From Reclinomonas americana ATCC 50394 (Eukaryota), in contig PS015009.1 of NCBI GenBank assembly GCA_048213135.1, positions 124,001 through 188,000 on the forward strand: DNA of 64,000 bases, given 5' to 3'. Numbering within the stretch: position 1 is the stretch's first letter; each line of letters starts with the position of its first letter. The notes beneath the pieces are model-generated. The model made no database searches. It was not told the DNA's origin and worked only from the letters and a program-made list of their open reading frames with translations. This document shows, one piece after another, positions 15,557 to 53,276 of this stretch. The translations under genes were made by a program, and so were the position numbers.

Positions 15557-16738
15557 TTACAGCACCTGCACGACCAGGAATTTCAGGTAATGTGTATTTT
15601 CCTGTCCGTGTATGATGGGATGATCTGCCGATTGCGCATTGAACATCACCCGCCTGATCTTTCTTTTGGCATCGTATGCGGCATGCTGCACCACATCAAG
15701 AAATTGCTCCGGCTGCACCAGGTTGGTACAGCTTGAGGTAACCAGGAAACCGCCGGGTTTCACCAGTTTCATGCCCCGCAGGTTGATCTCTTTGTAACCC
15801 GCCAGCGCTTTGCCAATGGTCGCCCTGCTCTTGGTAAAAGAAGGCGGATCCAGCATCACCACATCCCATTGCTTATCTTCCTTCGTCCAGTTTTTCAGCA
15901 CATCAAAAGCGTTCACACATTCAAAACGGCACACGTTCTCCAGCCCGTTGAGTGCGGCGTTGCGGTTACACATATCCACTGCTGCCTGGGAAATATCCAG
16001 CCCCAGTACCGATCGGGCGCCATAAAAACCGGCACTGATCTCGAATGAACCGGTATAACAAAATGCACCCAGCACATCCGCGTCTTTTACAATATGGCGT
16101 ATCGCCTGCCTGTTGTCCTGCTGATCTAGAAAATAGCCCGTCTTTTGCCCGTTGGCGATATCAACATGGAAGCGGATACCATTTTCATTGATGATGATAT
16201 TGGTGTCGAATGGAGCTGACAAAAAGCCTTTCTGCTGCTGCAGTCCTTCCAGTTCACGCACAGGCACATCATTGCGCTCGTATATGCCTTTGGGAGAGAA
16301 CAGCTCTTCCAGCGCCTTCACGATTTCAGCCTTCCACATATCTATCCCCAGCGCCAGGGTCTGTATCACGAAATAGTCGTTGAATTTGTCGATGATCAGT
16401 TGCGGCAGGTCATCGGCCTCGCCGAAAATAAGCCGGCAATTTTCCGTGTAACCCAGTTTTTGCCGGTAAGCCCAGGCCTGGCTGATGCGGTTGCGGAAAA
16501 AATCAGCGTTGATGTTATCCTCCTTATTGCGGGTAAGCAGGCGGACAGATATCTGCGATTGCGGGTTATAATACCCCTTGCCTATGAATTTTTTATCAAA
16601 AGTGAACACTTCCACGATCTCCCCGGGTTTTGCCGCGGTGTCTTTTTCATGGCCCGGATTAACCTCGTTCGCAAATATCCAGGGGTGGCCATTCTCTACC
16701 CGGCGGCTGATCTTCTTGTTCAGTACAATACTTTTCAT
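15557..16738 (-). CDS. Class I SAM-dependent rRNA methyltransferase (RlmI/RlmK-like)
   Basis: PUA-like GHPWIF, GQKTGYFLDQ, FCYTGSF and LDPPSF motifs; start re-assigned to MKSIVLNKK at 16738. Confidence 0.9.
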   Translation of the reverse strand: MKSIVLNKKISRRVENGHPWIFANEVNPGHEKDTAAKPGEIVEVFTFDKKFIGKGYYNPQSQISVRLLTRNKEDNINADFFRNRISQAWAYRQKLGYTENCRLIFGEADDLPQLIIDKFNDYFVIQTLALGIDMWKAEIVKALEELFSPKGIYERNDVPVRELEGLQQQKGFLSAPFDTNIIINENGIRFHVDIANGQKTGYFLDQQDNRQAIRHIVKDADVLGAFCYTGSFEISAGFYGARSVLGLDISQAAVDMCNRNAALNGLENVCRFECVNAFDVLKNWTKEDKQWDVVMLDPPSFTKSRATIGKALAGYKEINLRGMKLVKPGGFLVTSSCTNLVQPEQFLDVVQHAAYDAKRKIRRVMFNAQSADHPIIHGQENTHYLKFLVVQVL

Positions 16739-16874
16739 GCCGCAAAGGTAGCTTTTAGGGGGTGAAACACTCAAAATGACCCTTACCGGGTGGCAGGTTT
16801 GCCATTTTGACCGCAAATGAGGGTTGGCAAAATGTTTGACTGTTGTACCTTTGCAAACAATTTTACATACAGCA

Positions 16875-17423
16875 ATGGAAGAAAAAGAAATCATACCCGA
16901 ACAGAACGAAACGCTCAATATCAATGCCGATGCCGACGTACCCGGCAATACCCACCTGAGCAACGAAGGTGCGGAAGACGTGGTGGAGAAGCTGCAGAAC
17001 GAGCTTGATGAGCAGAGAGACAAGTACCTGCGCCTGGTAGCGGAGTTCGATAATTTCAAAAGGCGTACGGCCAAAGAAAGGATCGACCTGATACAAACTG
17101 CCGGTAAGGACGTGATCGTTTCCCTGCTGGAAGTGGTGGACGACTGCGACCGTGCCGAAAAACAACTGGACCAGAGCGATGACCTGGCCAACAGCAAGGA
17201 AGGCATCAGGCTCGTATTCAGCAAACTGCGCAGTTCCCTGCAGGCAAAGGGACTTAAGGCCATGGAAAGCATCAATACGCCTTTTGACGTGGAGAAACAC
17301 GAAGCCATTACAGAAATACCCGCCGGGGAAGGAATGGCAGGTAAAGTAGTGGATGAGATCGAAAAAGGATATTACCTCAACGACAAGATCATCCGTTTTG
17401 CTAAAGTGGTGGTAGGAAAATAA
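16875..17423 (+). CDS. grpE: Nucleotide exchange factor GrpE
   Basis: YLRLVAEFDNFKRR, FDVEKHEA, KGYYLNDKIIRFAKVVV; start re-assigned to 16875. Confidence 0.96.
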   Translation: MEEKEIIPEQNETLNINADADVPGNTHLSNEGAEDVVEKLQNELDEQRDKYLRLVAEFDNFKRRTAKERIDLIQTAGKDVIVSLLEVVDDCDRAEKQLDQSDDLANSKEGIRLVFSKLRSSLQAKGLKAMESINTPFDVEKHEAITEIPAGEGMAGKVVDEIEKGYYLNDKIIRFAKVVVGK

Positions 17424-17529
17424 TGGACAAATTTGCGAATAGGCGAATAAATAGCCTTGCAAAAGAAAGAACGTTTTCAAATCACTGCAACTTGTCCCGA
17501 CCGAAGAAGGGATTCAAACTTTCAATTGA

Positions 17530-18699
17530 ATGAAAAGAGATTATTACGAAATACTGGGCATCACCAAATCTGCGTCGCAGGACGAGATCAAGAAAGCCTA
17601 TCGTAAGGTGGCCATGCAGTACCACCCCGACCGTAATCCCGGCGACAAGGCCGCGGAAGAAAAATTCAAGGAAGCGGCGGAGGCTTACGAGATCCTGAGC
17701 GATACTGATAAACGGGCGCAATACGACCGTTTCGGGCACCAGGCATTCGGACCAGGCCGCAGTACCGGCGGGTACAGCGGAGGCGGCGGTATGAATATGG
17801 ATGACATCTTCAGCCAGTTCGGCGACATCTTTGGTGATGAGAGCCCCTTTGGCAGCTTCTTTGGCGGCAGCAGCCGTCGCGGTGGCGGAGGTGGCAGGGC
17901 CAGGGGTACACGTGGCAGTAATCTCCGGGTAAAACTGAAACTTAATTTTGAAGAAATAGCCCGCGGCGCTACCAAGACCATCAAGGTAAAAAAATACGTG
18001 GTGTGTACGACCTGCAGCGGCAGCGGCGCCAAAGACAAGAACAGCGTACAAACCTGCAGCACCTGCGGCGGAAGCGGACAGGTACGCAAAGTACAGAATA
18101 CATTCCTGGGCCAGATGCAAACCGTTACCACCTGTCCTACCTGCAATGGTGAGGGCTCAACGGTAACACATAAATGCGGCGCCTGCAAGGGCGAAGGAAG
18201 GGTATACGGTGAAGAAACCGTTACCATCGACATTCCGGCTGGTGTACAGGAAGGTATGCAGCTGAGCATTTCCGGAAAAGGCAATGCCGGCGAAAGAGGC
18301 GGTTCTCCCGGCGATCTTATCGTACTGATCGAGGAAGAAGCACACCCGCAACTGCACCGCGACGGATTGAACGTAGCTTTTGATCTGCACATCTCCATAC
18401 CCGATGCCATTTTCGGTACACAGGTGGAAGTACCTACTATTGACGGCAGGGCCAAGATTAAGATACCGGCAGGCACACAAAGCGGCAAAATATTCCGCCT
18501 GAAAGGCAAGGGTTTCCCCAGCGTAAACAGCTACGAAAAAGGCGACCAGTTGATACAGGTAAACGTGTGGACACCGCAGCATGTAACCGCCGAAGAAAAG
18601 CAGATGCTGGATAAAATGCAGCAGTCGACCAACTTTGCGCCCAAGCCGGAAAAGACCGATAAATCATTCTTCGATAAAGTGAGGGAAATGTTCAGCTGA
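17530..18699 (+). CDS. dnaJ: Chaperone DnaJ
   Basis: J domain with HPD, G/F-rich region, four CxxCxGxG zinc-finger repeats. Confidence 0.98.
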
Positions 18700-20938
18700 C
18701 GAAAACGTGCTCCTGCTCCCCTGCTGATAATTGCTGCTGAACCAGGCTGAAGTAAACACCACCCGCCTGTATGAGTTGTTCGTGTTCGCCCGATTCGCAG
18801 ATATGTCCTTTCTGCATAACGAGTATCTGGTCTGCCGAACGTATGGTGCTGAGGCGGTGAGCAACAATGATTACCGTTTTATTCCTGAAATATTCCTTTA
18901 ATTCTTCGTGTATCATTTTTTCATTCATCGCATCGAGGTTATTGGTGGCCTCATCAAGAAAAATAAATTCGGGATCTTTGTATACCACCCTCGCGATAAG
19001 TATGCGTTGCTTCTGTCCTGAACTGATACCGTGACCTTCTTCCCCGATCTTTGTATGGATGCCCTGCGGAAGGCGGCTGATCACATCTTCCACCCTCGCG
19101 ATGCGTATGGCCTCCCGGAGCCGCTCCTCGTTTACCGTTGCATTGCCCGGCACAATATTGCGCAGCACCGTATCCGGAAAGATATAACTGTCCTGCATCA
19201 CCACACCGCATCTTGAGCGCCACGGTTTATGCAGGTAATTGTCCAGGTCAATACCATTAACAGATATATGTCCTTCTGCCACCGGGTAATACTTCAGCAG
19301 CAGTTTGAACAAAGTGGTTTTACCGCTGCCACTGGCGCCCACAACAGCCGTGGTTTTACCCGGCAGTATGCTGCAGGATATATGGCGAAGCACCGGTTCA
19401 TCGCTGTCTCCCGGGTAAGCGAAAGATACATTGTCCAGTACGATCCCTTTCAGTGCTCCTTTCCGTTCTTCGTTTGCCGTTGCTGTGTGATCATCGCTCC
19501 ACTTTTGTTCTCCTTCCCCTTCATCGGGTACCTGGTGTATGGCATTGATCCGCTCCATGCTGATGAGCGCATGCTGCCAGTTCTGGCTGAAAGTAATCAC
19601 CTGTTCCACAGGGCCGCCCAGTTGCCCTATGATCAGTTGTATGGCCATCATTGTGCCCAGGGAAAGTGATCCCGACATGACCATTCCGGCCAGTATAAAA
19701 ATGATCGCCAGGTTCCGGCTTTCGTTGATCAGCGTACCACCTGTGCGCTGCCATTGATCCAGCCTGGTGATGCGCATATTCATATCATAATTTTTTTGCT
19801 GCACTTCATCCCATTTTTCCCGAACGGCATCTTCAATTCCAAACAACCTGATCTCCTGTGCGCCTTCGAGCAATTGCAGGGTTGTATTGTTCTCCTGCAC
19901 CGTAATATGAAAACGTTCATAATCGAGTCTTTTTCTTTTCGACATGAAGTACAACACCCATGCGGCATACAGTATCGCGGAACCCAGGAAAATGAGGAAT
20001 ATGGTAACACTTGCCCATGCCAATGCCACAGCAAAGAACAAGAGGCTGAATACAGCGAAAACAATATTAAGTACAGCGCCGGTAAGGAAGGCTTCAATCC
20101 TGCTGTGGTCCTGCATGCGTTGAAGTATACCTCCTTTTGTATGTACGGAGAAATAAGATATGGGGAGCCGAAGCAGCTTGGCAACAAGGTCAGACAGGAT
20201 GCTGATATTGATCTTTGAGCTGAGCATGGCCAGTGCCCGTGTCCTGATGTACTCACCCGATATCCTGCCCAGTATGAGGCAGCATTGCGCCGCCAGGAGC
20301 AGTACCAGCATATGATAATCTGCACGACCAATGGCCTTATCAACAATACTGCGGGTAAGATAAGGCGGCAGTAACTGCAAAGCTGCCAGCAGGGCGGTCA
20401 GTATGATCATACCTGCAACAGGAGCTTTGTACTTCCGAAGGTACCCGGATATTTTTTTTTCAGCAGCTACAGGTTCAGCTTCTCCGGTTGCATATTCTCC
20501 CTTGATAAAACTATCACCCGGTTCCATCAATAACGCAATACCTTCTTCAGCCTGTGTACCGCCATCACTCAACCAGTGTTTCAAAAAATTGTCCCTGTCC
20601 AGTTTTGTTTTTCCGCTGGCGGGATCGGCAATAAAAAAATTGCCTTTACTGATCCTGTACAACACCACATAATGTTGCTGGTTCCAGTGAAGGATAGCGG
20701 GGAGTGGTAAGTGTTGTTCCAGGTCTGCCACACTTAATTTTGCAGGATGGGTTTCAAAACCCAGTTGCCCGGCGAGTGTGGTAAGCCCCGCCAGGTTCAG
20801 TCCCGATGCTGTCATGGCCGCTGTTTGTTTCAGCTGCGCCTGTGATACTTGTAAGCCATAGGCACGCGCCACCATACGCAGGCAGGCAGGCCCGCAATCA
20901 GACTGGTCGTGTTGTGCGTAAAAAGTAAAAGACATCAC
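18692..20938 (-). CDS. Peptidase-containing ABC transporter (C39 PCAT, double-glycine leader exporter)
   Basis: C39 triad QHDQSDCG / HWNQQHYVV / IADPA, TM domain, Walker [28 protein letters not shown]. Confidence 0.95.
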
Positions 20939-20953
20939 CCGGAAATAAAATAA

Positions 20954-20983
20954 TGGTCATGCCCGTTGTTGCGGGCATGACCA
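20954..20983 (-). terminator. 12-bp perfect hairpin with U-rich tail between precursor and exporter
   Basis: TGGTCATGCCCG-TTGTTG-CGGGCATGACCA, followed on the minus strand by TTATTTTATTT. Confidence 0.7.
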
Positions 20984-20989
20984 ATGGGA

Positions 20990-21220
20990 TTACATGCAGG
21001 CAGTGCAGGTAAGGCCGATCCAGTCGAGCCCGCCATGCGTACTGCAGAAATTGAATGTTGTGCAGTAGGTCTGCGCCTGTGCGCAGTTGGTACCACAGGA
21101 ATACTCGATAGTACCGTCGGCACAACCGCAAGTACCTTGTCTTGCAGTAAGCAGACCACCGTTTACCTGGCGTTGCTCTTCTTTGGTGAGCGTTTTACCC
21201 AGACTTTGAATTTTTTTCAT
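20990..21220 (-). CDS. Double-glycine-leader precursor peptide with 8-Cys core (bacteriocin/RiPP-like)
   Basis: Leader MKKIQSLGKTLTKEEQRQVNGG fits the L-x-x-E-E-x-x-x-(I/V)-x-G-G pattern; 54-aa Cys-rich core; directly upstream of a C39 exporter. Confidence 0.88.
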   Translation of the reverse strand: MKKIQSLGKTLTKEEQRQVNGGLLTARQGTCGCADGTIEYSCGTNCAQAQTYCTTFNFCSTHGGLDWIGLTCTACM

Positions 21221-21324
21221 AATAAAAAGCATTGAGGTTAAAAATTGGTCCTGGTTTTAAGGTACAGAACTCGGTTACCCTGTTTGCAAACTTTCGCGGG
21301 ACATTATTGCCCGGCTTACTATTA

Positions 21325-22875
21325 TCAGGCCATGATGTTACTCATGGAAAAACATTCTTCCGGGTAGTAGCGGACGATCTTAAAAAAATCATCGATGCTG
21401 TATTCTTTTGGCAGCATTTTCTCATGCACAGACAAAGATGGTGTTGCGTTTATCTTATTCATGGCAAACCAGGATTTGCACTCGCTGAGAAAAACACCTG
21501 CCTTGTCTGCATCTGCAGGCGAAAGCGGGTATTGCCTGCTGAAACGGCCAAAATCCATGTTCCTGAACCACTCTCCCAATACCTTTCTCCTCGCTTGCCC
21601 ATCCTGTTTGCCCAACAGGACGCCGGATATATGCCTCAGCATAGCCATCCTTTGTTCGTTACCTGCAACATTGGGTATTTTAAACCTTATCCTGATGTTG
21701 ATGCGGCCGGGAAATTTGTCCAGTATGACCTCCGCAGCATTAAACGCTTCCGCACATGGCTGGCAGGTGATGCTGCTGGCCATTACCAGCTGCATGGGAG
21801 CGTTTTCATTGCCCAGGCTGATCTCGGAAGTGAAATCTCCGGCAATACCCGCTGGCTCCTGCTGAAGGGCAGCGTGGAACATTTTCCAGGAATGCATCGA
21901 ACGCCTGAGGTTAAATAATTCCTTTTGTTTTTCCGACGCGTTTGTGAGGATCTTTTTTACCCTGGTCCATACCATGATCACCACAAGTGATATACCTGAA
22001 AAAAGCAGCAAGGGTAAGATCTGCGGGAAAGTAAAAAGAGTGTTTCCGTTATAAGCCACCAGCAGGGCGGCCTGGGTCCAGAGCAATGCGGTAACCGCTA
22101 AACACATCCGGCACCATTTGCGGGCTGTGAACGCCTGGTAATAAAGCGTAAAAAATGTAGGGATGACAGCAACCACGGAAAGCTGCGTTAACGGCAAGGC
22201 TATTCCGTCAAAGCCGGTAGAAACGGCGGCGATAAAAAGAAACAGGAACAGGCTGGCAAACCAGGTAATGCAGAGATCTGCCAGGCTGATACCGGCAAAG
22301 GGTAAACGTTTTTTTGTGCCGATGATGCTGTCGCAGCTGTCGTTACAGAGTTTACCGGCCATGCGGTTAAAAATTCCCATTTCAGAAGCAATGATCATCC
22401 CGCTTATCAATATACCCACACCCTGGATGACAACCAGCCCGCTGAACAACCATTGTTTTTCCAGTAAAATGGCGGTACCGCCAAGCAAGGCCATCACTAT
22501 ACCCGCCAGTAGGGAATAACCAATAGTTTCCGGCGCTTTTCTTTTTTGTCCTTCAGGACGCTCCGCCACCAGCACAATGTTGGCCCAGCGTTCCTCAAAA
22601 TGCGGCACTTCTTTTACAGGATCTTTTTTAATAAGCGCATACTCCCCGCCGTTGCTGTAAAGAAATACGAGGTAAGGGTCTTCAATAGCCGAAAGGCTTT
22701 CCAGGCCCATTTCCACGGAGGTGTTGGGAATGTCCATATCGTCAAGCGTATCGGTAATAGCTACCAGTGAAGGATACTCCGGATGGCTGAGCAGTTTTTC
22801 TTCCAGTTGTGAAAAGGGGACATCAATATGCAGGAGCAGGAGCCAATCGTGAAGCATTACTTCAAGGGTTTTCAT
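21325..22875 (-). CDS. Pseudo-C39 / VKOR / thioredoxin (DsbA-like) fusion membrane protein
   Basis: N-terminal C39-like domain without Cys (SHPEYPSL), VKOR loop cysteines CNDSC, TM CxxC (WCRMC), C-terminal CQPC and cis-Pro ATP motif. Confidence 0.85.
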   Translation of the reverse strand: MKTLEVMLHDWLLLLHIDVPFSQLEEKLLSHPEYPSLVAITDTLDDMDIPNTSVEMGLESLSAIEDPYLVFLYSNGGEYALIKKDPVKEVPHFEERWANIVLVAERPEGQKRKAPETIGYSLLAGIVMALLGGTAILLEKQWLFSGLVVIQGVGILISGMIIASEMGIFNRMAGKLCNDSCDSIIGTKKRLPFAGISLADLCITWFASLFLFLFIAAVSTGFDGIALPLTQLSVVAVIPTFFTLYYQAFTARKWCRMCLAVTALLWTQAALLVAYNGNTLFTFPQILPLLLFSGISLVVIMVWTRVKKILTNASEKQKELFNLRRSMHSWKMFHAALQQEPAGIAGDFTSEISLGNENAPMQLVMASSITCQPCAEAFNAAEVILDKFPGRINIRIRFKIPNVAGNEQRMAMLRHISGVLLGKQDGQARRKVLGEWFRNMDFGRFSRQYPLSPADADKAGVFLSECKSWFAMNKINATPSLSVHEKMLPKEYSIDDFFKIVRYYPEECFSMSNIMA

Positions 22876-22971
22876 AACGAGTACGGTTAGGTTTGAATGA
22901 TGCAGTTATCGCATCCGGATTCCTAATATAATTCAAATTACAGGTAAATGGAAATTATTTTGGCGAACTTT

Positions 22972-24732
22972 CTATTCCGCCTTCTTTTTCTTCTTCTTGC
23001 CGGTATCGTATATCTTCCTGGCCTTACCCACCAGCTGAAGAAATTCATTCTGCAGGTAACTGGAAGGATCGTAACTGTTCAGCGTCAGGGTCTCAATCTC
23101 CTGCCAGTCCACTTCCTTTATATATTTGGATTGCTTCAGTTTTAACCCGAAGAGCGAAACCGCCGCGGCGAACTGTAATTCTTTTTCGAGTTCCTTAAAA
23201 TCGATATAGTTGGCGGGGCAGGTATACTGCATGTATAAGCGTGACGTATCGTTGCACAGGCTGTACCGCATCGATATGCCGGCGAGGCCATCCTTATCGG
23301 GCAAACGCGTGGTGAGGTCCGCGGCCGGTATAATTTCAAACATAGCCACTACACTGTTGCCGCTGCCTATCTCTCCTCCTTCCAGGTCAATGGTACTGTC
23401 GGCCACGGCGTCTTTTTTATTATCAAAACCTATGAGCCTGTAGGAACGCACCAGCCGGGGGTTAAATTGAATATTCATAAACACATCATCAGCTACGGCA
23501 AAAAAAGTCTGCGTCAATTCTTTTACCAGCACTTTTTCCGCTTCGGCAATATCATCCAGGTAAGCGAAGTTGCCATTGCCCCGTTTGGCCAGCGCTTCCA
23601 GTTTTGAATTTTTAAAATTACCCATTCCCACACCCAGGCAGGTAAGGTATACACCCGATTGTCTTTCTTTGGTGATCAGTTCTTCAAGTGCTTTCTCAGA
23701 AGTAAGGCCCACGTTAAAATCGCCGTCGGTAGCGAGTATCACCCGGTTGGTACCCTTCTTGTTAAACGTATTCCGGGCCAGCGAATAAGCGGTCATGATA
23801 GCCGCTTCGCCGGGTGTGTCGCCACTGGCCGTGAGTTCTTCAATCCGTTCTATGATTTTCTCTTTTTCAGCGCCACCGGTGGGTTGCATCCAGATACCAA
23901 CGGTACCGCCATAGGTTACGATAGACACGGTATCAATAGGTCGCAGGTTTTTTACAAACATCTGGAAAGCCGCTTTCAGTAAGGGTAACCGGTTTTGCAT
24001 ATCCATACTCCCCGATGCATCGATAAGAAAAACGAAATTGCCCGGCGGTATTTTGTCGAGATCCAGTTTGCGGGCATTGATGTTAAGGAGCAGCAACTGC
24101 TTTTCCTCGTCCCAGGGACAGGAGGTTAGCTGCGATGATATTTTGAATACGGAAGAAGCGTCGGGCTCGCTGTAGTGCAGGTTGAAGTAGTTGACCATCT
24201 CCTCTGTACGAACAGCGTCGGGCGGTACAGAACTGTTGGTATTGATGAAGCGCCGTACATTGCTGTAGGAAGCTTTGTTCACGTTGAGTGAGAAACCGGT
24301 GTTGGGATATTTTTTGGCGTCGACATATTCATTCTCGACGAGCTGAAAATAAGTTTCGTCGTTTTGTATCCATTTCGACCGCGAGGTCTGTTCCAGGTCT
24401 TTGGTGATGGAGATCAGTTTGGGCCGGTTACGCATCACCGTTGCCGGCAACACTTTCATGGTTACGTATTGCCAGGTGTTGGCGTTTATCTTTACCGTTT
24501 GTGTTTCATAACCATCGAGCGATACGGTAATACTGTCGTTCAGCGTACGGGTAATGATGCCGAAACCTCCGGAGGTTCCCGACATATATTGCTGACGAAC
24601 GGAGTGCAGGAATATCCTGGCGTTCTGAAGGGGCTGGTTTTTTTCGTCTTTTACTTCACCACGGAGATAATACTGTCCTTTTGCGGACATGGCAAGCAGC
24701 AGCAGGAGGATATAAGTCAGACGAATAGTCAA
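22972..24732 (-). CDS. VWA-domain protein (YfbK-like) with N-terminal carboxypeptidase-regulatory-like domain
   Basis: Signal peptide, ASYSNVRR, VRTEEMVNYF, MIDAS DASGSM, ILATDGDFNVG. Confidence 0.88.
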   Translation of the reverse strand: MTIRLTYILLLLLAMSAKGQYYLRGEVKDEKNQPLQNARIFLHSVRQQYMSGTSGGFGIITRTLNDSITVSLDGYETQTVKINANTWQYVTMKVLPATVMRNRPKLISITKDLEQTSRSKWIQNDETYFQLVENEYVDAKKYPNTGFSLNVNKASYSNVRRFINTNSSVPPDAVRTEEMVNYFNLHYSEPDASSVFKISSQLTSCPWDEEKQLLLLNINARKLDLDKIPPGNFVFLIDASGSMDMQNRLPLLKAAFQMFVKNLRPIDTVSIVTYGGTVGIWMQPTGGAEKEKIIERIEELTASGDTPGEAAIMTAYSLARNTFNKKGTNRVILATDGDFNVGLTSEKALEELITKERQSGVYLTCLGVGMGNFKNSKLEALAKRGNGNFAYLDDIAEAEKVLVKELTQTFFAVADDVFMNIQFNPRLVRSYRLIGFDNKKDAVADSTIDLEGGEIGSGNSVVAMFEIIPAADLTTRLPDKDGLAGISMRYSLCNDTSRLYMQYTCPANYIDFKELEKELQFAAAVSLFGLKLKQSKYIKEVDWQEIETLTLNSYDPSSYLQNEFLQLVGKARKIYDTGKKKKKKAE

Positions 24733-24805
24733 GCTAAAGGTTAATTTCAGAAAAATAATACTTTTCCGCTAGCAAGACAAGGTTTCCCGCGATAATGTTG
24801 CCTAG

Positions 24806-25342
24806 CTATCCCTCCGTCAACTGGTAAATTTCTTTTAAATTTCTGCCCAGCCCGTCATAGTCGAGGCCATACCCCAGCAGGAACTTATTGGGCACGCTGA
24901 ATCCGAGGTAATCGATCGTAAGGGGAAATACCAGTGCTTCGGGCTTATGCAGCAGGGAGGCGATCCGGAGTGAGGCTGGTTGCTGGTTGATCAGTTGCGG
25001 CAGGAATTCATGCAGGGTTTTGCCCGTATCTACGATGTCTTCCACAATGATCACGTGGCGGTCCTGCAAAGGCATATCCAGGCCAATGGAAGTGATTACA
25101 TTACCGGTGGATTTTGTTCCCTTGTAAGAAGCCAGTTTAATAAAGCAGATCTCCGCTTCTATGGTCAGTTCCTTGAACAGGTCGGAGGCGAACATAAAAG
25201 ACCCGTTGAGGATGGCGATGAAAAGCGGTTTCTTTCCTGCATAGTCTTCATTGAGGCGGGCGCCCAATTTGGCAACCTGTTCGCTGATCTGTTCGGAAGT
25301 GATATAAGGTTCAAATTTTTTGTCTAATACCTGGATTATCAT
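24806..25342 (-). CDS. hpt: Hypoxanthine phosphoribosyltransferase
   Basis: ILNGSFMF, PRPP loop IVEDIVDTGKT, GYGLDY. Confidence 0.95.
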   Translation of the reverse strand: MIIQVLDKKFEPYITSEQISEQVAKLGARLNEDYAGKKPLFIAILNGSFMFASDLFKELTIEAEICFIKLASYKGTKSTGNVITSIGLDMPLQDRHVIIVEDIVDTGKTLHEFLPQLINQQPASLRIASLLHKPEALVFPLTIDYLGFSVPNKFLLGYGLDYDGLGRNLKEIYQLTEG

Positions 25343-33423: not shown

Positions 33424-34491
33424 TTAGAATTTAGGGCAAAGCGACTGGCGGTCCACCGTTTCAGGATAGAATCCTTTCTTAATGAGACTGATCTCGCTTC
33501 CGCCTTTATAACCATTAAACTTACTTAAGCTGGATAAAGTGAAATCGTAACTGTACGTGATTTTTACAGACCCCAGTTCAAAGCCCACAACAGGCGCAAC
33601 CGCATCACCCAGCCGGTAATATACACCGGCGATGAGTTGCTTCTCACCGAATTCGGACAGGTTATAATTCGCATTCATGCCCAGCACCAGTTCGGTGGCC
33701 CTGGCCTGCGTGGAGAAATAGGCATTGGGGTTAATGATCACCCGGGGATTCACTTTCAGCAGGGCATTCACAAAGCCGGTGTGCCGGAAAGGTATGCGTC
33801 CTTCATTCGTCAGGTCAGCAAAAAAAGTTTCTTTAGGCCTGTTCACATGCATGATGGAGTACCCCGCATTGATGTATACATTCTCACTGGGGAAGTAAGC
33901 GTAATTCACGCCTGCCTGCATATCCAGGTAACTTACATTGTTATTGGTCAGCACCACGGAGGTAGGCAGTGTGTTGTCGAAGAATTTACCATCGAACTGG
34001 TCAGGAAATTTCAGTTTACTCTGGTCAATACGTTTGTTGGCCCAGCCAATGTTGAACCCTGCGGATACCAGGCTGCTGTTGCCCAGCATCTGGTGGTAGG
34101 CGATGGAACCATACACTTTGGTACTCCTGAGGCTGCCGCTGCCGGCCACATCATACAATACCAGTGCGCCCAGTCCGAGCCAGCCGTTTTCCAGCCTGTC
34201 CCTGAACACCTGGGCGTCGCCGAAAATGGTTCCTGTTTTATAAGGCACCGTCATCACGTTACTCCATTGCTGGCGGTAGCTGCCGCCAATACGGTAATCA
34301 GCATCGGGAATAAAACCCGTGTTGGCCGGGTTAGTCACCAGCGGTGTATTGAAGTATTGTGAAAAGTGAAGGTCCTGCGCCTTGCCGCCCGTTGCCGCCA
34401 GCACCAGCAATAACAAGAGGTTCCACGCAAAATAATATTGCCTGTGCTCCTGTTTGCCTTTCTTCTTATGATATGCTATTGCCTCGTTCAT
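33424..34491 (-). CDS. PorP/SprF-family T9SS membrane protein
   Basis: QDLHFSQYF..PL..NPA.TG, YRQQW, YSYDFT...S...GGSEISL; lies directly after a type B CTD cargo gene. Confidence 0.92.
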   Translation of the reverse strand: MNEAIAYHKKKGKQEHRQYYFAWNLLLLLVLAATGGKAQDLHFSQYFNTPLVTNPANTGFIPDADYRIGGSYRQQWSNVMTVPYKTGTIFGDAQVFRDRLENGWLGLGALVLYDVAGSGSLRSTKVYGSIAYHQMLGNSSLVSAGFNIGWANKRIDQSKLKFPDQFDGKFFDNTLPTSVVLTNNNVSYLDMQAGVNYAYFPSENVYINAGYSIMHVNRPKETFFADLTNEGRIPFRHTGFVNALLKVNPRVIINPNAYFSTQARATELVLGMNANYNLSEFGEKQLIAGVYYRLGDAVAPVVGFELGSVKITYSYDFTLSSLSKFNGYKGGSEISLIKKGFYPETVDRQSLCPKF

Positions 34492-34505
34492 GCTTTTAAA
34501 TTTCT

Positions 34506-37500
34506 TTATCGGAGCAGGGTGATGTCCCCTGTCTTCCTGAATTTTACACCATCTGTAAATACTACGTCAAGTGTATAGGTATATACGTCCATGGGTTGCA
34601 GTGCGCCTTTGAATTTACCGTCCCATCCCTGGTTGCGGTCCTCGGTCTGGAATACGACCTGCCCCCAGCGGTTGTATATTTTCCAGCTCATCTGCCCGAT
34701 ACCAAATCCCATTACACGTACCACATCTGCACTGCCGGTAAACCTGCCGGGTGTAAAGGCGTTGGGTACATCGAGCAATGGCTTGATGAGCGCCTGCACA
34801 TCAAGCGTGATACTGTCTACACAATTGGCCACATTGTAAGCATACAAAGTTGCCTGGAAGGTGCCGGTGGAATTGTACTGGTGTACGGGATTCACCTGTG
34901 TGGAGGTTTCCCCATCGCCGAAATTCCAGAGATAGCGGGTGGCACCAACAGACAGGTTGGTAAAACGCGTGGGCCTGTTCTCTTCCGCCGGGTTGGGCGC
35001 CCAGCTGAAATTAGCTGTGGGTATGGGATACACGGTAATAGTAAAATAGGCGGATGTGTCCCGTTTATTACAGGTATTATCGTCAATAGCAATCAGCCGT
35101 ACATTGTAAGTACCTACCGCGGTATATTCATGCGTAGGATTAGGATCGGTGGAGGTTTGCGTATCGCCGAATTCCCATATAAAATCCGTACCGCCGATGG
35201 AAGTATTTTTAAACTCAGCTTTGTAAGGTACGCAGCCGATGGGGTTTACCTCAAACTGTGCTTTTACATTAGGACTGATGCGCAGCGTTTTTTTGACCGA
35301 GTCGGGCGAATTACAGAACGTGGTATCATCTACCACCAGCGTTACTTCATAAGTGCCGGTAGAAGGATAAGTATGTATCTGTGAGCCAAAGCCGGTACGT
35401 ATGCGGGGCGAGCCATCACCAAAATCCCAGATGAAGGTTTTGTTGGTATAGTTAGGCAGCACAGCCGTGGTCAGGTTGTCAAACCGGTAACGAAGACTGC
35501 TGCAGCTGTCGAGTTTGGTAAAGCTGAAATCGGGTTTGACTTCATTATTACCCACTTTTACGCTGATGTACGCCGTATCGGCAATATTACAGGTAGAAGA
35601 GTCGATAGACACCAGCATGAGCTGGTAAGTGCCCACCTGGTTGTACGTATGACTGCTGGTATTGTTGGGCGCATAGGTCGTATCCGGTTTGGGATAAGTA
35701 GGATCGCCGTAATGCCAGATGTACATTTTTCCTTTGGCAAGTGTATCGGTAAACTTGATGGTGAGCGGTACACAACCTACCGTATCCACTACCCCGCCAA
35801 TGGTCGCTTTTACACTGGCACCCACGCCAGAAAAGTTCATCTCAATTTTAACAGCGGCCTGGTTACAGCCGATCGTTCCGTTATTCACGGCCCATACACC
35901 CGCGGTAGTAGGAAAGGGCACATCCCTGCCGCAGTTGGCACATATGCCCTGGTAAATAACACCATTGGCATCAAAACGGCTGGTACCGCCATCCACGTGA
36001 TCACCAACGCCGCCGTTCTGCCCGAAGTGTGTTCCGAACAGTTGGCTGTTGGCATCGCGTTCCAATACAAAAAAGTAGAAATCGGCGCCATCGGCTGCAG
36101 GTAAACCCGGTATGGGGTTGACTTCGGGCATACCATTGGTACCGGCAGACTGGAATAACTGGGTAATATTGAGACCACCGCCCCAGCCGGAAACGTATAC
36201 ATTCTGGCACCGGTCAACCAGGAAGGCTACCGGCGAAAGATTAGGAACCGCGGCGGCTGTTCCAAATACCGTGGAGTAAACAAAATTGGACAGGTCGGGC
36301 TGCAGTTTCGAAATAAACTGTTTGGACCCGGGGTTGCTGAACGTGGCATTCACTACCGGCCAGTTGCCCGTAGTGGTACCCATGATGTAAGGGAAACCGA
36401 ATTTATCGAACTGGATACCATATACGAGGTCATTACCTGATGTACCCATGAATGTTGTTTTGAGGAAGGGTCCGCCCGTTGTCGCGATCGAAGTGATAAA
36501 ACCGTCGCATTCCCCGCCCTGGAACGTGCTCCTGTATACACCTGTTTTATCGCCGGGTATGCTGGTGCTGGTTGTGCCGCCGGCAACATACAGTATGCCG
36601 GATACGGGGTTGATGGACAATACAAACGCCGCATCATCACCACCGCCGCCAAAAAAGGTACTGTAAGTAAGCGCCAGGCTGGGCGTGAATTTCAATAGGG
36701 CGCCGTCCTGCCTGCCGCCGCCAAATGAGGCCTGGCCTGCGGTAGCGGTCACGGGAAAATCGGAGGATTGGGTACAGGAAGCCAGGTATACATTACCTGC
36801 CGCGTCGAGGATCACTTCGCTGCGGGCATCATCGCCATAGTTCCTGCGGGTGGCATCGGTACCGGGCGGGTTGGCATATTTATGCCTGATATTGACACCA
36901 TCGTTATTGCTGCCTCCTATTTTGGTGGAAGCAATCATCGCACCGCTACTGTTGAATTTGGTGATCACGATATCATAACCGCCCAAAGCCGTATTGGCCG
37001 TGGTTACGGGGTAATTGGTCGAAAAACTCCTGCCCGCCATTACCAGGTTACCCTGTGCATCGCACATCAAACTGTGGGGTTGTTCGTTGCCTGAGCCGCC
37101 CACATAAGTGGCATACATCCTGTTCCTGCCATTGGGCGATAATTTCATTAACGCGATATCATAAGGGAATAAACCATTCTCCGTTACACCACCGCCAAAA
37201 GTGGCCTGGTAAGCGCCCGGTGAAGTGGGGTAACCTTCGCCATAACATACACCGCCCATAAAGAAACTGCCGTCGGGGCCCGGCGTAGCAGTGAAGCCCC
37301 AGTTATCGGCCGTGCTGCCGGTGAAGCTGGAGAAGATCAGCGAAGGGTCAACAACCAGTGTGCTGGCGGGATCATAATCCCCTACTTTGAAGCGAACGAT
37401 GTTACCGTTGACAACATATTTACAGTCAACCGTATTTCTTTTACCCGCAACAGAGGACTGGTAACTATAAGGATACAACTCTTTTACATCACCTACAGAA

Positions 37501-38090
37501 GTACTAATCACCAGTTCTTTATTCTTCACCTGCAGGCGATCGGCACCCTGGTAACGCATAGCGATGGCGTTTACATTGCCGCCGGGCTTTACAATAAAAT
37601 CGTACTTCAGTTTATCGCCGTCGCTGTAATAACGTACATCAATATTCGGGTACACGTTGGCGTAAGTAACGGCATTATAGATGCGGCATTCATCGGCCCA
37701 TTTGGATCGGTCCTGGCCAATGAAATAGTTGTTGTAATTGGGCAGCATTTTATCGGGCACAGCCATTACTTTGGAAGAGCTGCCAAGGAATTCTACTTTA
37801 TAAGCGTGTGATCTTACAGTAACAACGGGTTTGGGGTTCTGGCTGCCGATGCCGTGCCCGTGCATCAGTTCCGACAGTTTTGCGAGGTCGTCGGGGTTGC
37901 TCATCTGTACGGTAAACCCATTATTTTCAAGATAGAAAGCCCCGTAGGAAAAATTGCCCCGGTAATTGACACGGCCATCCCACTGGCCTTTGTTCTCAAT
38001 AAATTCCATCTGGGCCCGGGAAGAGAAGGTCAGTGTAAGGATCAAAAGAAGTAAGTAGAAACGAGGTAGTATTTTCCTGGATAAGTTCAA
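34506..38090 (-). CDS. T9SS type B cargo: beta-propeller (SBBP-like) plus PKD domains plus gliding-motility C-terminal domain
   Basis: FIENKGQW, PKD motifs WDFGDG, type B CTD PNAFTP...IYNRWG...WDG...GDITLLR. Confidence 0.9.
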   Translation of the reverse strand: MNLSRKILPRFYLLLLILTLTFSSRAQMEFIENKGQWDGRVNYRGNFSYGAFYLENNGFTVQMSNPDDLAKLSELMHGHGIGSQNPKPVVTVRSHAYKVEFLGSSSKVMAVPDKMLPNYNNYFIGQDRSKWADECRIYNAVTYANVYPNIDVRYYSDGDKLKYDFIVKPGGNVNAIAMRYQGADRLQVKNKELVISTSVGDVKELYPYSYQSSVAGKRNTVDCKYVVNGNIVRFKVGDYDPASTLVVDPSLIFSSFTGSTADNWGFTATPGPDGSFFMGGVCYGEGYPTSPGAYQATFGGGVTENGLFPYDIALMKLSPNGRNRMYATYVGGSGNEQPHSLMCDAQGNLVMAGRSFSTNYPVTTANTALGGYDIVITKFNSSGAMIASTKIGGSNNDGVNIRHKYANPPGTDATRRNYGDDARSEVILDAAGNVYLASCTQSSDFPVTATAGQASFGGGRQDGALLKFTPSLALTYSTFFGGGGDDAAFVLSINPVSGILYVAGGTTSTSIPGDKTGVYRSTFQGGECDGFITSIATTGGPFLKTTFMGTSGNDLVYGIQFDKFGFPYIMGTTTGNWPVVNATFSNPGSKQFISKLQPDLSNFVYSTVFGTAAAVPNLSPVAFLVDRCQNVYVSGWGGGLNITQLFQSAGTNGMPEVNPIPGLPAADGADFYFFVLERDANSQLFGTHFGQNGGVGDHVDGGTSRFDANGVIYQGICANCGRDVPFPTTAGVWAVNNGTIGCNQAAVKIEMNFSGVGASVKATIGGVVDTVGCVPLTIKFTDTLAKGKMYIWHYGDPTYPKPDTTYAPNNTSSHTYNQVGTYQLMLVSIDSSTCNIADTAYISVKVGNNEVKPDFSFTKLDSCSSLRYRFDNLTTAVLPNYTNKTFIWDFGDGSPRIRTGFGSQIHTYPSTGTYEVTLVVDDTTFCNSPDSVKKTLRISPNVKAQFEVNPIGCVPYKAEFKNTSIGGTDFIWEFGDTQTSTDPNPTHEYTAVGTYNVRLIAIDDNTCNKRDTSAYFTITVYPIPTANFSWAPNPAEENRPTRFTNLSVGATRYLWNFGDGETSTQVNPVHQYNSTGTFQATLYAYNVANCVDSITLDVQALIKPLLDVPNAFTPGRFTGSADVVRVMGFGIGQMSWKIYNRWGQVVFQTEDRNQGWDGKFKGALQPMDVYTYTLDVVFTDGVKFRKTGDITLLR

Positions 38091-43842: not shown

Positions 43843-44604
43843 CTAATAGCTGTAGGTATATACAGTTGTGTTGCCTCCAACTGCCTCATATCTTGTCTCT
43901 TTCACCGGGTAGCCATCGGCATCCATTTCAAATTTACTTTCTGCATCCCATTTTATAGTACCCATCGCATCTTTCGTCCTGTACCGCACCTGCCTGTTCC
44001 TGGGTGTCTTTCCGAATAAAGAATAAGATCGCCAGTAGCCGTGAGGATTGGGCATGGTATTAAAAGCATTATTGTCATAGGTATAATCGCCCCTGGTACT
44101 AAGAACACCATTATAATATATTTCCTGCGAAATATAATTACCTCCTGCTATCGTATACCGTACCTCAAAATCATTGCTATTTGATGGAGAGCCCACCTTC
44201 CTGATAATATATCCTTCGTCATTGTAAGTGAACCCGTAATTATAGGTAACAACCCCTGCACTGTTCTTAAAAACGATATTGGTTACATACCCTTTGGCGT
44301 TCAATACACACTCCTTGGTTAACCTGAAACTGTTATCAGCATTGTTTCTTTCCGTTACTACCAATGATGCATCAGATACGTAATCAAAAGTTGATGTAAT
44401 GTTGTCGTCACTTATGGATGCGATCCTTCCTTTTGCATCATAGGCGTAAATCTCTGTTTCAGGAGTTCCGCCGTTATATAAGGTTACCAACTGTGAAATG
44501 AACTTGGTAACCGCCGGTGCCGGGGTTAATGGAGCCGGAGTTGTTTCTTTTTTACAACCGGCCATTACTGCAAGAACAAAAAAAGTGAAGCATAATTTTT
44601 TCAT
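43843..44604 (-). CDS. Lipoprotein with YD-like beta-strand repeats (DUF4595-like)
   Basis: Lipobox MAGC followed by KKE; YAYDAKGR, YNDEGY and DADGYP repeats; start re-assigned to 44604. Confidence 0.75.
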   Translation of the reverse strand: MKKLCFTFFVLAVMAGCKKETTPAPLTPAPAVTKFISQLVTLYNGGTPETEIYAYDAKGRIASISDDNITSTFDYVSDASLVVTERNNADNSFRLTKECVLNAKGYVTNIVFKNSAGVVTYNYGFTYNDEGYIIRKVGSPSNSNDFEVRYTIAGGNYISQEIYYNGVLSTRGDYTYDNNAFNTMPNPHGYWRSYSLFGKTPRNRQVRYRTKDAMGTIKWDAESKFEMDADGYPVKETRYEAVGGNTTVYTYSY

Positions 44605-44684
44605 GATCTTTATTTTAAACTGTTTGTTTTTGATTACGATGTAAAAATGCAACCCGGCAACGGTCTGCTCAATTTTACTCCACC

Positions 44685-44733
44685 CAAATGCCAATAAGCT
44701 TATTTAAAATGCAGCTATCCTGTGGTTAAATGA
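44685..44733 (-). promoter_or_regulatory. Putative LytTR binding site (three repeats, 21-bp period)
   Basis: Coding strand TCATTTA / GCATTTT / GCATTTG at 44727, 44706 and 44685. Confidence 0.55.
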
Positions 44734-44779
44734 AATGCAGGAAAACATGAAGACAGATGAAACAACAACGGAATAAAAT

Positions 44780-44804
44780 AAAAAAGCCACTCATAAAGAG
44801 TGGC
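44780..44804 (-). terminator. Intrinsic terminator
   Basis: GCCACTC-ATAAA-GAGTGGC with a U6 tail on the minus strand. Confidence 0.75.
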
Positions 44805-44827
44805 CCCGGTTATGATCATGGCAGTGA

Positions 44828-45349
44828 CTATACTTCTACTTTTATTTTTACAAGTAGTGCGTCGTTATCGGCCCTGGTTATATACATCACCCCTCTTTTA
44901 CCTGATGCTAACTGGAAAATGAGACAGGGGTAATTAATGATGCCGGCATGGTTGTTAGCAATAACTGCGTAAAAAGAAAAGGAATGATTGGTAATGTGAC
45001 CAGCCATTCTTTTCATATCTGCAACCGTTTCGCATTTGTTGAACAGGTCTTTATCCCAACTGATCGGAGCGATTCCGGTTTGAGTTCCCTGCAAATTTTC
45101 CGGCACAACAGAAGCCTTATTGCTCATGTTGTAAAATTCTTTGATCGTATCACGGCCATCCACCCTGAGCGAATATAAAAAGTCAAGGGCCTGCTTAACA
45201 CCCTGCGCATTTGCTTCTGTATACACTTGTTTATCCCCTATACTTACATAGCCCTGCACAGGCAGGGTAAGAGAAAAACTGGCGAGCTTTTGTGCTTTGA
45301 CTGTATACAAACAGGAGAAGACAAGCACGGAAAGGAATAATTTTTTCAT
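44828..45349 (-). CDS. Exported hypothetical protein
   Basis: Signal peptide MKKLFLSVL...VKA-Q; no family recognised. Confidence 0.75.
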   Translation of the reverse strand: MKKLFLSVLVFSCLYTVKAQKLASFSLTLPVQGYVSIGDKQVYTEANAQGVKQALDFLYSLRVDGRDTIKEFYNMSNKASVVPENLQGTQTGIAPISWDKDLFNKCETVADMKRMAGHITNHSFSFYAVIANNHAGIINYPCLIFQLASGKRGVMYITRADNDALLVKIKVEV

Positions 45350-45424
45350 GATCGTTTTTTTTGAAGTTAGTCGAATGCCTCAAAATTGTATACATACAAG
45401 TGCAACATCAATTTTTTTTTAAAC

Positions 45425-45473
45425 GAACTGCAGTCTTTACTATTTAAAATGTGCTTTATCCTGCCTGAATTGC
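45425..45473 (-). promoter_or_regulatory. Putative LytTR binding site (three repeats, 21-bp period)
   Basis: Coding strand GCAATTC / ACATTTT / GCAGTTC at 45467, 45446 and 45425. Confidence 0.6.
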
Positions 45474-45598
45474 GCTTCAATTTTTATCATCGCCGGCTGG
45501 CAAATGAGCTGTTGTAAGTTCGATATTTGTATACCTGAAAGTATACAGCCTCCCATCACGGTTAATACGTACAAGATGCGGCAAGCTATTCAGCAGTA

Positions 45599-46018: not shown

Positions 46019-46075
46019 ACTTAATATTTAAGCGAAATTGATCCAAACTTTATGACTGTCCGAATATTTCCTTGC

Positions 46076-46103
46076 GAGCTGTTTAAAAACTAACCCGAAC
46101 TGC
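46076..46103 (-). promoter_or_regulatory. Putative LytTR binding site (two repeats, 21-bp period)
   Basis: Coding strand GCAGTTC / ACAGCTC at 46097 and 46076. Confidence 0.5.
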
Positions 46104-46108
46104 CGAAA

Positions 46109-46879: not shown

Positions 46880-46889
46880 ATTCGGTTGT

Positions 46890-49907: not shown

Positions 49908-50096
49908 ACAATTGATCTTTCAGTTACAGCAAGCTATAAAAAAGCCCTCTCAATAGCAAGTTTAGCCGGTGAATATGATTAGAAATGAATTGAGGTGTAT
50001 CAAAACCCAAACGAAGTGTAGTCAACTGTACCTGACCCTATATTACACCAAACCCAATACCGGACTGGCTTTACTGGAATTACAGATCGTTTTCTG

Positions 50097-52286: not shown

Positions 52287-52306
52287 ACTATACCTGGTTT
52301 TGATGT

Positions 52307-53262: not shown

Positions 53263-53276
53263 TATTTTTAAACTTC

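Follow-up and report, generated by a model that had tools for sequence, protein, structure and literature searches.

A three-gene Chitinophagaceae island combining a VKOR-type oxidoreductase that carries a C39-like domain, a cysteine-rich double-glycine precursor and a peptidase-containing exporter

Described systems and the dnaJ-vWA locus

Catalysts dedicated to disulfide formation in exported peptides are, to our knowledge, known from only few cases. The nearest characterised system is that of the bacteroidetocins (Coyne et al. 2019, PMC6671954; Matano et al. 2021, PMC8546649). Bacteroidetocins are disulfide-bonded Bacteroidota peptides with a double-glycine (GG) leader, encoded beside a thiol oxidoreductase and a peptidase-containing ATP-binding cassette (ABC) transporter (PCAT) (PMC6671954); their target is BamA (PMC6671954; PMC8546649), and deletion of the oxidoreductase attenuates toxin activity, from which the authors infer dedicated disulfide formation (PMC6671954). 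Here, we analysed a comparable locus in a 64,000-nucleotide stretch of DNA (positions 124,001 to 188,000 of contig PS015009.1, assembly GCA_048213135.1, filed under Reclinomonas americana ATCC 50394; hereafter the window), in which three co-oriented minus-strand open reading frames (ORFs) spanning 18692-22875 encode a 516-aa oxidoreductase of the vitamin K epoxide reductase (VKOR) type, a 76-aa GG precursor and a 748-aa PCAT (Table 1). A previous, sequence-only reading of this DNA had claimed these three genes, and the same three stand in the ORF list; their treatment as one unit is supported by the findings reported below, and the core of that reading, namely a dedicated disulfide-forming enzyme together with a GG precursor and a cleaving exporter, holds. 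Its statement that no product of this kind has been characterised was too strong, given the bacteroidetocins (PMC6671954) and sublancin (PMC6391423) as precedents; the system is not without precedent.

Compared with the bacteroidetocins, which have a 15-aa leader, a 42-aa mature peptide and 4 Cys, the peptide encoded here has a 22-aa leader, a 54-aa core and 8 Cys. The gene order differs as well, and while bacteroidetocin loci include a gene for a protein with five transmembrane (TM) segments, no further gene lies here between dnaJ and the von Willebrand factor A (vWA) gene that flank the island. The domain family of the bacteroidetocin oxidoreductase is not stated in the papers and supplement searched, and that enzyme is likened to ours by description only. 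Sublancin 168 stems from the operon sunA-sunT-bdbA-sunS-bdbB, which resembles the present island in that a precursor of the GG type goes with a cleaving ABC exporter and a dedicated thiol-disulfide oxidoreductase; the peptide needs BdbB and SunT, and its disulfides are formed by the oxidoreductase (PMC6391423). It differs in its Gram-positive origin, in having two disulfides plus S-glucosylation by SunS, in the immunity gene sunI and in the lack of a fused leader-type domain. BdbB belongs to the DsbB family, not to VKOR. For VKOR itself, the described counterpart is the Synechococcus VKOR-thioredoxin fusion (3kp9, 4nv2, 4nv5, 4nv6), with which the present enzyme shares the VKOR core, the loop Cys pair, the CxxC and a fifth helix leading to a thioredoxin-fold domain. 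The Synechococcus protein, however, has neither an N-terminal C39-like domain nor an extra helix, and it is a general rather than a peptide-dedicated oxidase. The domain fused here is DsbA/BdbD-like.

A full-text literature search, outside of which subscription journals lay, returned no relevant link of VKOR to double-glycine, C39, peptidase C39 together with bacteriocin, or leader peptides of Bacteroidetes, and a mining paper on ribosomally synthesised and post-translationally modified peptides of Bacteroidales contains no redox terms. Neither the leader-domain fusion nor the reversed charge bias described below was found in the literature searched. New, against this background, are an enzyme of three domains that includes a leader-type module, the extent of its family together with the even Cys counts of the peptide cargo, and the predicted inward-facing relay.

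The carrier of the three-gene island is a Chitinophagaceae bacterium: type IX secretion system (T9SS) genes (PorP/SprF, CHU_C) in the window mark it as Bacteroidota DNA, and the DnaJ adjoining the cluster is up to 87% identical to proteins of Chitinophagaceae/Chitinophagales assemblies. The island sits between dnaJ and a vWA/YfbK gene, which are 4.27 kb apart here with the gap filled by the three genes, whereas, of 49 loci of relatives with both genes, 44 show the vWA gene no more than 1 kb downstream of dnaJ; the cluster therefore represents an accessory insertion. Among 80 related dnaJ loci, the oxidoreductase gene was found in none (0/80), and PCAT matches were found in three (3/80), restricted to the ATPase domain at 25-28% identity. 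Repeats flanking the island were looked for and none were found. In the closest relative, the same junction (L001, 9257-13012) carries another, 4.5-kb insert that encodes a sensor histidine kinase, a response regulator and a Kup-type potassium transporter; the dnaJ-vWA junction seems to be a recurrent insertion site.

The 40 window ORFs of at least ~180 aa (7 of which lacked any match) were scanned against Pfam at E<=1e-8. As the sequence-only reading had held for the window, none encodes a LanB/C/M, radical S-adenosylmethionine (SAM), YcaO or ATP-grasp protein, nor did the scan find the class-defining maturase of a lanthipeptide, sactipeptide, thiopeptide, graspetide or glycocin. The precursor is the sole GG-leader candidate with at least 4 Cys in the window. 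With its oxidoreductase, one peptide and exporter, the island is a minimal form of the system.

Table 1. Features of the island and its upstream flank (positions within the window).
Feature	Position	Strand	Basis and remarks
PCAT, 748 aa, GTG start	18692-20938	-	C39 domain at residues 5-122 (20573-20926)
Hairpin, 12-bp perfect stem plus U-rich tract	20954-20983	-	Terminator scan; lies between peptide stop and PCAT start
Precursor gene, 76 aa	20990-21220	-	Leader 21155-21220 (22 aa), core 20993-21154 (54 aa), stop codon 20990-20992
Oxidoreductase, 516 aa	21325-22875	-	ORF; Pfam VKOR and Thioredoxin_4; invariant Cys; AlphaFold2 (AF2) model with pLDDT 87, pTM 0.75
Oxidoreductase residues 1-113, inactive C39-like domain, putative leader-binding module	22537-22875	-	Profile, model and structure matches
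Oxidoreductase residues 117-303, extra helix (117-137) plus VKOR TM1-TM5	21967-22527	-	AF2 helices; profile match to 4nv6
Oxidoreductase residues ~340-505, DsbA/BdbD-like domain, CQPC 371-374, invariant T478-P479	21361-21858	-	Profile; Foldseek
Weak sigma-70-like promoter match upstream of the oxidoreductase	22925-22954	-	Consensus scan, 9/12; a hint only, since Bacteroidota promoters differ from the consensus

A cysteine-rich precursor beside a three-domain oxidoreductase

The precursor ORF (20990-21232) comprises 80 aa, or 76 aa if the start is MKKIQ at 21220. Its leader, MKKIQSLGKTLTKEEQRQVNGG, is followed by a 54-residue core with eight Cys (positions 9, 11, 20, 24, 31, 37, 50 and 53), exactly the positions given previously. 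With L-12, E-8, V-4 and GG, the leader corresponds to the consensus of 53 peptides encoded next to homologous oxidoreductases (see below), and the regular expression that describes it also matches 44 of these 53. The core is rich in Thr, Gly and Cys. An identical 76-aa peptide is recorded on 7 contigs, and a 39,298-nt contig covers the whole locus at ~93% DNA identity; its length agrees with that recorded for the identical peptide (P0001) and for a 92%-identical oxidoreductase (P0002), which places the two side by side. A variant (P0153) differs at 10/76 residues (87% identity), retains all 8 Cys and lies beside a 45%-identical oxidoreductase (P0003), their shared contig being deduced from contig statistics (2 contigs, longest 18,038). 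The peptide is thus much better conserved than the enzyme (100% vs 92% and 87% vs 45% identity).

Curated Bacteroidota models exist for GG leaders of related appearance, namely NF047798 (leader_Chryseo, 'bacteriocin-like protein') and TIGR04149 (GG_sam_targ_CFB); the latter names radical SAM targets, whereas the window scan holds no radical SAM enzyme. Six of the 53 neighbouring peptides reach the cut-off of NF047798 and many more match NF047798 and/or TIGR04149 below cut-off, while the window peptide lies above the cut-off of none of the leader models NF047798, TIGR04149 and TIGR01847. No NCBIfam model matches the oxidoreductase or the precursor at E<=0.01, and a word-based search for precursor relatives returned only the precursor itself. 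ESM Atlas leads (0.85-0.86, sub-threshold) pointed to Bacteroidota 'rSAM-modified peptide' clusters and were read as leader similarity only. Fused or longer forms of the precursor were searched for and none were found, which carries little weight; a 704-aa frame in one divergent locus (L195) was considered as such a form and rejected, since its start appears over-called and the leader type next to it is another one. The same locus (L195:2053-5168) holds a divergent oxidoreductase homologue amid five small ORFs with leaders ending in KGAG or GRG and 2-4 Cys.

The oxidoreductase consists of three domains. Over 42 family members, Pfam detects VKOR in 42/42 (best E 3.4e-16), Thioredoxin_4 in 40/42 and Peptidase_C39 in 20/42; the window protein itself scores 27.9 bits for VKOR (PF07884; cut-off 27.5) and 20.8 bits for Thioredoxin_4, below the cut-off of 23.2. 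Its cysteine pairs are C177/C181 (CNDSC), C255/C258 (WCRMC) and C371/C374 (CQPC), of which C181, C255, C258, C371 and C374 are invariant in the 42-sequence alignment and C177 is conserved in at least 90%; H31, P67, T478 (nearly) and P479 are further conserved columns. The loop Cys pair and the CxxC at the start of TM4 are present and aligned to the Synechococcus VKOR, and the family profile matches 4nv6 (E 5e-6) from the second hydrophobic helix onward as well as the DsbA-like protein 4xvw (E 5.7e-7) over residues 320-519. When the full-length AF2 model was compared in Foldseek, it matched BdbD (3eu3) and DsbA family chains (E ~1e-5, TM-score 0.5-0.67 on the target). By profile and model, the C-terminal part is a predicted DsbA/BdbD-like domain, not a plain thioredoxin. 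The VKOR cysteines and the CQPC motif noted in the sequence-only reading are thus borne out, yet its picture of a two-domain VKOR-thioredoxin protein is not, as it missed a third, C39-like domain and took the C-terminus for a thioredoxin.

For this N-terminal domain, a profile from 40 sequences (~113-118 residues) returned only the C39 domains of PCAT1, ComA and LahT among the 12 best sequences of the Protein Data Bank (best E 4.7e-4). A model of the domain (pLDDT 94) gave C39 or C39-like domains in all of the best 21 Foldseek rows. In VIA-align, it matched PCAT1 with Z 11.5 and a root-mean-square deviation of 2.9 A over 113 residues, and the best 18 rows were C39 or C39-like domains of ABC exporters, including that of HlyB. 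In the alignments, E78 stands in place of the catalytic His and the site of the catalytic Cys comes to lie near T3, while residues 1-113 of the family contain no conserved Cys. With both catalytic residues missing, the domain is therefore a protease-dead C39-like domain rather than a peptidase. An invariant 'HPDYPS' motif was considered as a replacement of the catalytic Cys motif and turned out to be wrong, since the alignments place the Cys near residue 3. We infer that the domain binds the GG leader. HlyB offers a parallel in that it likewise has a protease-dead C39 fold N-terminal to its membrane domain (3zua, 7sgr, 8dck; Z 9.7-11.1 to our model), and the C39-like domain of HlyB binds its substrate HlyA; in HlyB, however, the domain is part of an ABC exporter and not of an oxidoreductase, and the substrate has no GG leader.

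The exporter gene completes the island. Peptidase_C39 (E 1.7e-35), ABC_membrane (E 1.1e-27) and ABC_tran (E 7.4e-29) are matched on one chain, and an alignment pairs Q9, C15, H89 and D105 with catalytic residues in PCAT1, so that the intact Cys/His/Asp triad ascribed to this protein before is present (C15, H89, D105). NCBIfam bacteriocin exporter models match it at 375-414 bits, below their equivalog/subfamily cut-offs.

The oxidoreductase belongs to a large Bacteroidota family. An exhaustive profile-free search yielded 509 representative clusters at E<=1e-30, a number that rises to 3,231 at E<=1e-3; among these, the 150 family matches listed are 399-564 aa long and nearly all aligned over their whole length. 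The family profile was found in 57/301 genomes at the level of the family Chitinophagaceae and in 22/401 genomes at class level, and NCBI annotates the fusion as 'vitamin K epoxide reductase family protein' in seven of eight plasmid-collection records. VKOR-domain matches numbered 20 across 61 genomes of the family (in 13 of them; frames of 270-599 aa, the two short ones being a contig-end fragment and a split gene), and every one is of the C39-like/VKOR/DsbA-like fusion type; VKOR is hence no housekeeping substitute for DsbB in this family.

We then inspected the surroundings of 40 family members with 4-kb flanks: 24 loci cover 26 of the 29 class-level rows (G001 and two fragments of one gene being left out), and the remaining 16 are the best-scoring of 78 family-level rows, with the first match taken per genome. 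A PCAT lies within 4 kb of the oxidoreductase in 25/40 loci, and in 33/40 the oxidoreductase gene is accompanied by one or more small ORFs of the same orientation that encode a GG leader and a core with at least 2 Cys. The nearest downstream peptide begins at a median of 110 nt past the oxidoreductase stop (within 400 nt in 24/30 loci). Altogether, 53 peptides were kept after one ORF (L152:138-458) had been dropped by eye. Their leaders agree (L-12 in 46, S/T-11 in 45, E/Q-8 in 46, K/R-6 in 46, I/V-4 in 46 and GG in all 53), while their cores are unrelated to one another. The cores contain 2 (1 peptide), 3 (1), 4 (11), 6 (24), 7 (3), 8 (12) or 10 (1) Cys, an even number in 49/53, which favours full pairing of the cysteines in disulfides. 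The sequence-only reading had declared beforehand that it would fall if homologous VKOR-thioredoxin genes did not co-occur with even-Cys GG precursors; as these counts show, they do. GG ORFs with at least 4 Cys numbered 51 in 370 kb around oxidoreductase genes vs 3 in 1,045 kb of dnaJ control loci, and those with at least 6 Cys 40 vs 0. An earlier pass over 30 loci with 1.5-kb flanks, which overlaps the 40-locus sample, gave the same picture. A profile search for related loci found none in genome contigs and only two in metagenome contigs; in both of the latter the arrangement recurs, with 8 Cys in the core.

A Pfam scan of 52 of the 134 co-oriented neighbouring ORFs, chosen inside or next to the clusters, revealed 26 proteins in 21/40 loci with a TlpA-like thioredoxin C-terminal domain (Thioredoxin_8, Redoxin, AhpC-TSA), often together with DUF4369. 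All 24 N-termini inspected by eye (24/24) resemble signal peptides or lipoprotein signals. These proteins are 330-510 aa long (e.g. L115:2116-3591, L139:2015-3463, L197:2170-3519), and the window island has none; they might act as isomerases, as reductases or in immunity. Besides, the scan found HlyD-type proteins in 3 loci, glycosyltransferases in several and a LanC-like gene in one. In a Parabacteroides distasonis record (NZ_OY725766.1, filed as a plasmid but with housekeeping genes; L113:4908-11509), a fusion homologue stands with a DUF4369 protein, a LanC-family gene, two glycosyltransferases and a PCAT, and the peptide is 59 aa long with 6 Cys and a leader ending in AG; this locus may represent a glycosylated or lanthionine-containing variant of the system.

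Such loci bear on the question whether all cysteines of the core would end up in disulfides. Alternatively, they might bind metal or undergo further modification by distant enzymes (thioethers, glycosylation), which we consider improbable. The CxC, CxxxC and CxxC spacings in the core would suit this alternative, as would the glycosyltransferases or LanC-like gene at L117, L120, L122, L126, L131, L148 and the Parabacteroides record, and modifying enzymes might be encoded outside the 64-kb window. Yet no gene of this type occurs among the 40 window ORFs, the even Cys counts speak for pairing, and the one constant partner of these peptides is a disulfide-generating enzyme.

Taken together, the three genes probably form a self-contained accessory island for a secreted disulfide-rich mini-protein, made along the following steps. 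The 76-aa peptide would be synthesised with its 22-aa GG leader, which the membrane enzyme may grip through the inactive C39-like domain. The DsbA-like CxxC would then turn the eight core Cys into four disulfides and, by homology, be re-oxidised by the fused VKOR core, which would pass the electrons to the membrane quinone. Finally, again by homology, the PCAT would cut after Gly22 and export the 54-aa product. In addition, the strong hairpin behind the peptide gene would probably let precursor transcripts outnumber those of the exporter. A defensin- or knottin-like fold, four disulfides and an antibacterial role, as envisaged in the sequence-only reading, are conceivable in this scheme. Several points weigh against this account. 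The disulfides, the cleavage site and secretion are predictions; the best score of the window leader with a curated model is 10 bits (NF047798, E 0.83, cut-off 23.5); the core has only two close relatives; 7/40 loci lack a GG peptide detectable by the ORF search, and 4/53 peptides have an odd Cys number; and the 40 loci are a top-score rather than a random sample.

Orientation of the redox sites

The AF2 model places six hydrophobic helices in residues 117-303, and since the homology to VKOR starts at the second of them, one extra helix precedes the VKOR core. With six helices, the C39-like and DsbA-like domains come to lie on the same side of the membrane. We compared the distribution of positive charges across 149 family members. 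The mean number of Lys plus Arg (K+R) is 4.95 before the extra helix, 0.15 in the loop between the extra helix and TM1, 4.13 in the Cys-pair loop, 0.26 in loop 2/3, 1.88 in the CxxC loop, 0.38 in loop 4/5 and 5.99 after TM5. In 148/149 members, the Cys-bearing loops hold more K+R than loops 2/3 and 4/5 together (0.148 vs 0.034 per residue); the segment before the extra helix has at least 3 K+R in 140/149 and the one after TM5 at least 4 in 146/149. Eighteen canonical VKOR controls of the same phylum show the opposite bias: for 10 stand-alone VKORs (134-161 aa; 12 were fetched and two without a profile match dropped), the Cys-bearing loops have 0.058 vs 0.206 K+R per residue, and for 8 longer ones (409-458 aa) 0.043 vs 0.216. 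The phylum sample also contains a second Bacteroidota VKOR class (L187-L194, ~410-460 aa) with canonical charge bias and a C-terminal extension after the fifth helix, which is distinct from the C39-like/VKOR/DsbA-like fusion.

Under the positive-inside rule, this charge bias would place the redox sites and the DsbA-like and C39-like domains in the cytoplasm. The usual assumption of an extracytoplasmic VKOR-thioredoxin relay is not backed by the charge distribution of the family. The cytoplasm is also the only place where the GG leader still exists. From sequence, we regard an inward orientation of the redox sites and the leader-type domain as about evenly balanced between right and wrong. Were it correct, the peptide would fold before losing its leader and being exported.

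Alternatively, the enzyme could have the canonical orientation, with the VKOR core and the DsbA-like domain in the periplasm and the peptide oxidised only after cleavage and delivery by the PCAT, a possibility that falls just short of an even chance; so does its corollary that the C39-like domain is periplasmic, too, and serves another role such as core binding, docking or oligomerising. Outward topology is established for the Synechococcus VKOR-thioredoxin enzyme, and DsbA/BdbD-like domains are normally extracytoplasmic. The TlpA-like partners, present in half of the related loci, suggest that redox work on the peptides, i.e. thiol-disulfide chemistry, takes place outside the cytoplasm. According to a recent preprint, every bacterial VKOR characterised to date is outward-facing, and the positive-inside rule is broken by some VKORs (preprint 10.64898/2026.03.26.714578). 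Finally, a hydropathy-based count of segments in the 149 members gave 3 (1 member), 4 (31), 5 (64), 6 (44) or 7 (9) and did not confirm six segments throughout the family; it is an unreliable measure because short loops merge, and the alignment and the AF2 helices were used in its place. These observations weigh against an inward-facing relay. The canonical orientation, for its part, has to contend with the almost uniformly reversed charge bias, opposite to that of the 18 controls, and with the K+R-rich flanks before the extra helix and after TM5. It would also require translocation of a 113-aa N-terminal domain that has no signal peptide. The best 18 structure rows of that domain are C39 or C39-like domains of ABC exporters, which are cytoplasmic, and in the periplasm a leader-type domain would meet no leader.

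The fusion may, with an even chance, be a naturally inverted bacterial VKOR, whose core is flipped by the extra N-terminal helix and which would permit leader-guided oxidative folding in the cytoplasm, with the GG precursor gripped by the protease-dead domain during the introduction of four disulfides, before the peptide is handed to the PCAT. It would then amount to a tailoring enzyme with disulfide formation as its sole chemistry, found across hundreds of lineages of Bacteroidota. The same preprint describes a naturally occurring VKOR with catalytic Cys on the cytoplasmic side, namely VKORi of Aeropyrum pernix (preprint 10.64898/2026.03.26.714578). That protein is archaeal and, in the same text, not described as fused to leader-type or DsbA-like domains, and the orientation of our enzyme family is only predicted, from its charge bias.

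Expression, product and significance

Between the peptide and exporter genes, the hairpin (Table 1) folds at -23.7 kcal/mol (z -5.67), and none of 200 shuffled sequences folds as well (0/200); it is likely an intrinsic terminator or attenuator. Rfam has no match within 17000-25000 at E<=0.1. Two metatranscriptome runs of one study contain a ~93% relative of the locus, with contigs that include the peptide gene and cover 19956-22905 (depth 75.7) and 20010-21087 (depth 53.9); contigs covering dnaJ in the same two runs have depths of 17.4 and 11. The first of these contigs ends at 22905, 30 nt upstream of the oxidoreductase start and near the promoter-like match. Contigs from RNA libraries, however, may derive from DNA and give no information on strand or transcript level, which counts against reading too much into them; they give only a hint of expression of the peptide gene.

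As to the role of the product, antagonism as a class II-type bacteriocin seems the likeliest by analogy with the bacteroidetocins, though this is a guess with about an even chance of being right. Tandem arrays occur behind one oxidoreductase gene at L127:5660-6898, L131:3045-3889, L132:2844-3902 and L142:2909-3902, where 3-4 precursors have nearly identical leaders and unrelated 4-8-Cys cores. It is possible, if rather doubtful, that the product is instead a secreted signal, a protease inhibitor, or an adhesion or surface factor. Arrays of divergent peptide genes sharing one leader type, as in these four loci, are typical of antagonism loci and thus argue against such a role, and so does the fact that the only characterised analogues named, the bacteroidetocins and sublancin, are toxins. 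Other features favour it, and the first two also count against a bacteriocin. The ORF list and Pfam scan show no immunity, regulator, HlyD or outer-membrane gene in the island, which is odd for the bacteriocin of a Gram-negative cell, and no HlyD or outer-membrane gene for secretion beyond the periplasm was found in the window; against this point, bacteroidetocin loci likewise have no identifiable immunity gene (PMC6671954). The core is anionic rather than cationic, with acidic residues exceeding basic ones by ~2 in a manual count, and it is rich in Thr, Gly and Cys, whereas bacteroidetocins are described as somewhat basic (PMC6671954). Lastly, non-Cys residues of the core are strongly conserved between distant hosts, which would also fit a specific receptor or target.

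The remainder of the window contains further features of note. A T9SS pair (33424-38090) consists of a PorP/SprF membrane protein and a 1194-aa DUF7948/PKD protein with a CHU_C sorting domain. The stretch 44001-50000 has a low GC content (0.41-0.44 vs ~0.48 elsewhere) and contains genes for a LytTR response regulator (46109-46879) and a 1005-aa Reg_prop/Y_Y_Y histidine kinase (46890-49907). At E<=1e-8, Pfam matches none of four large ORFs within 50721-57598 (521, 234, 418 and 1006 aa). Finally, a 583-aa ORF on the minus strand (15557-17308) is over-called: matches to PUA and SAM methyltransferase domains are confined to its C-terminal ~390 residues, and in its 5' part it runs over grpE, which lies on the opposite strand.

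In summary, the island joins a leader-type recognition domain, fused to a complete disulfide-generating relay, with hypervariable Cys-rich cores, and the family may thereby answer how dedicated disulfide catalysts select their substrate. If the inward orientation is true, this would be the first bacterial VKOR facing the cytoplasm and a natural case in which disulfides form under control within a reducing compartment, immediately ahead of export, with a bearing on how PCATs handle folded cargo and on the engineered cytoplasmic production of disulfide-rich peptides. Either way, the family marks a large pool of small multi-disulfide peptides in environmental Bacteroidota, 53 of them in 40 loci, that so far carry at most a 'bacteriocin-like' label.

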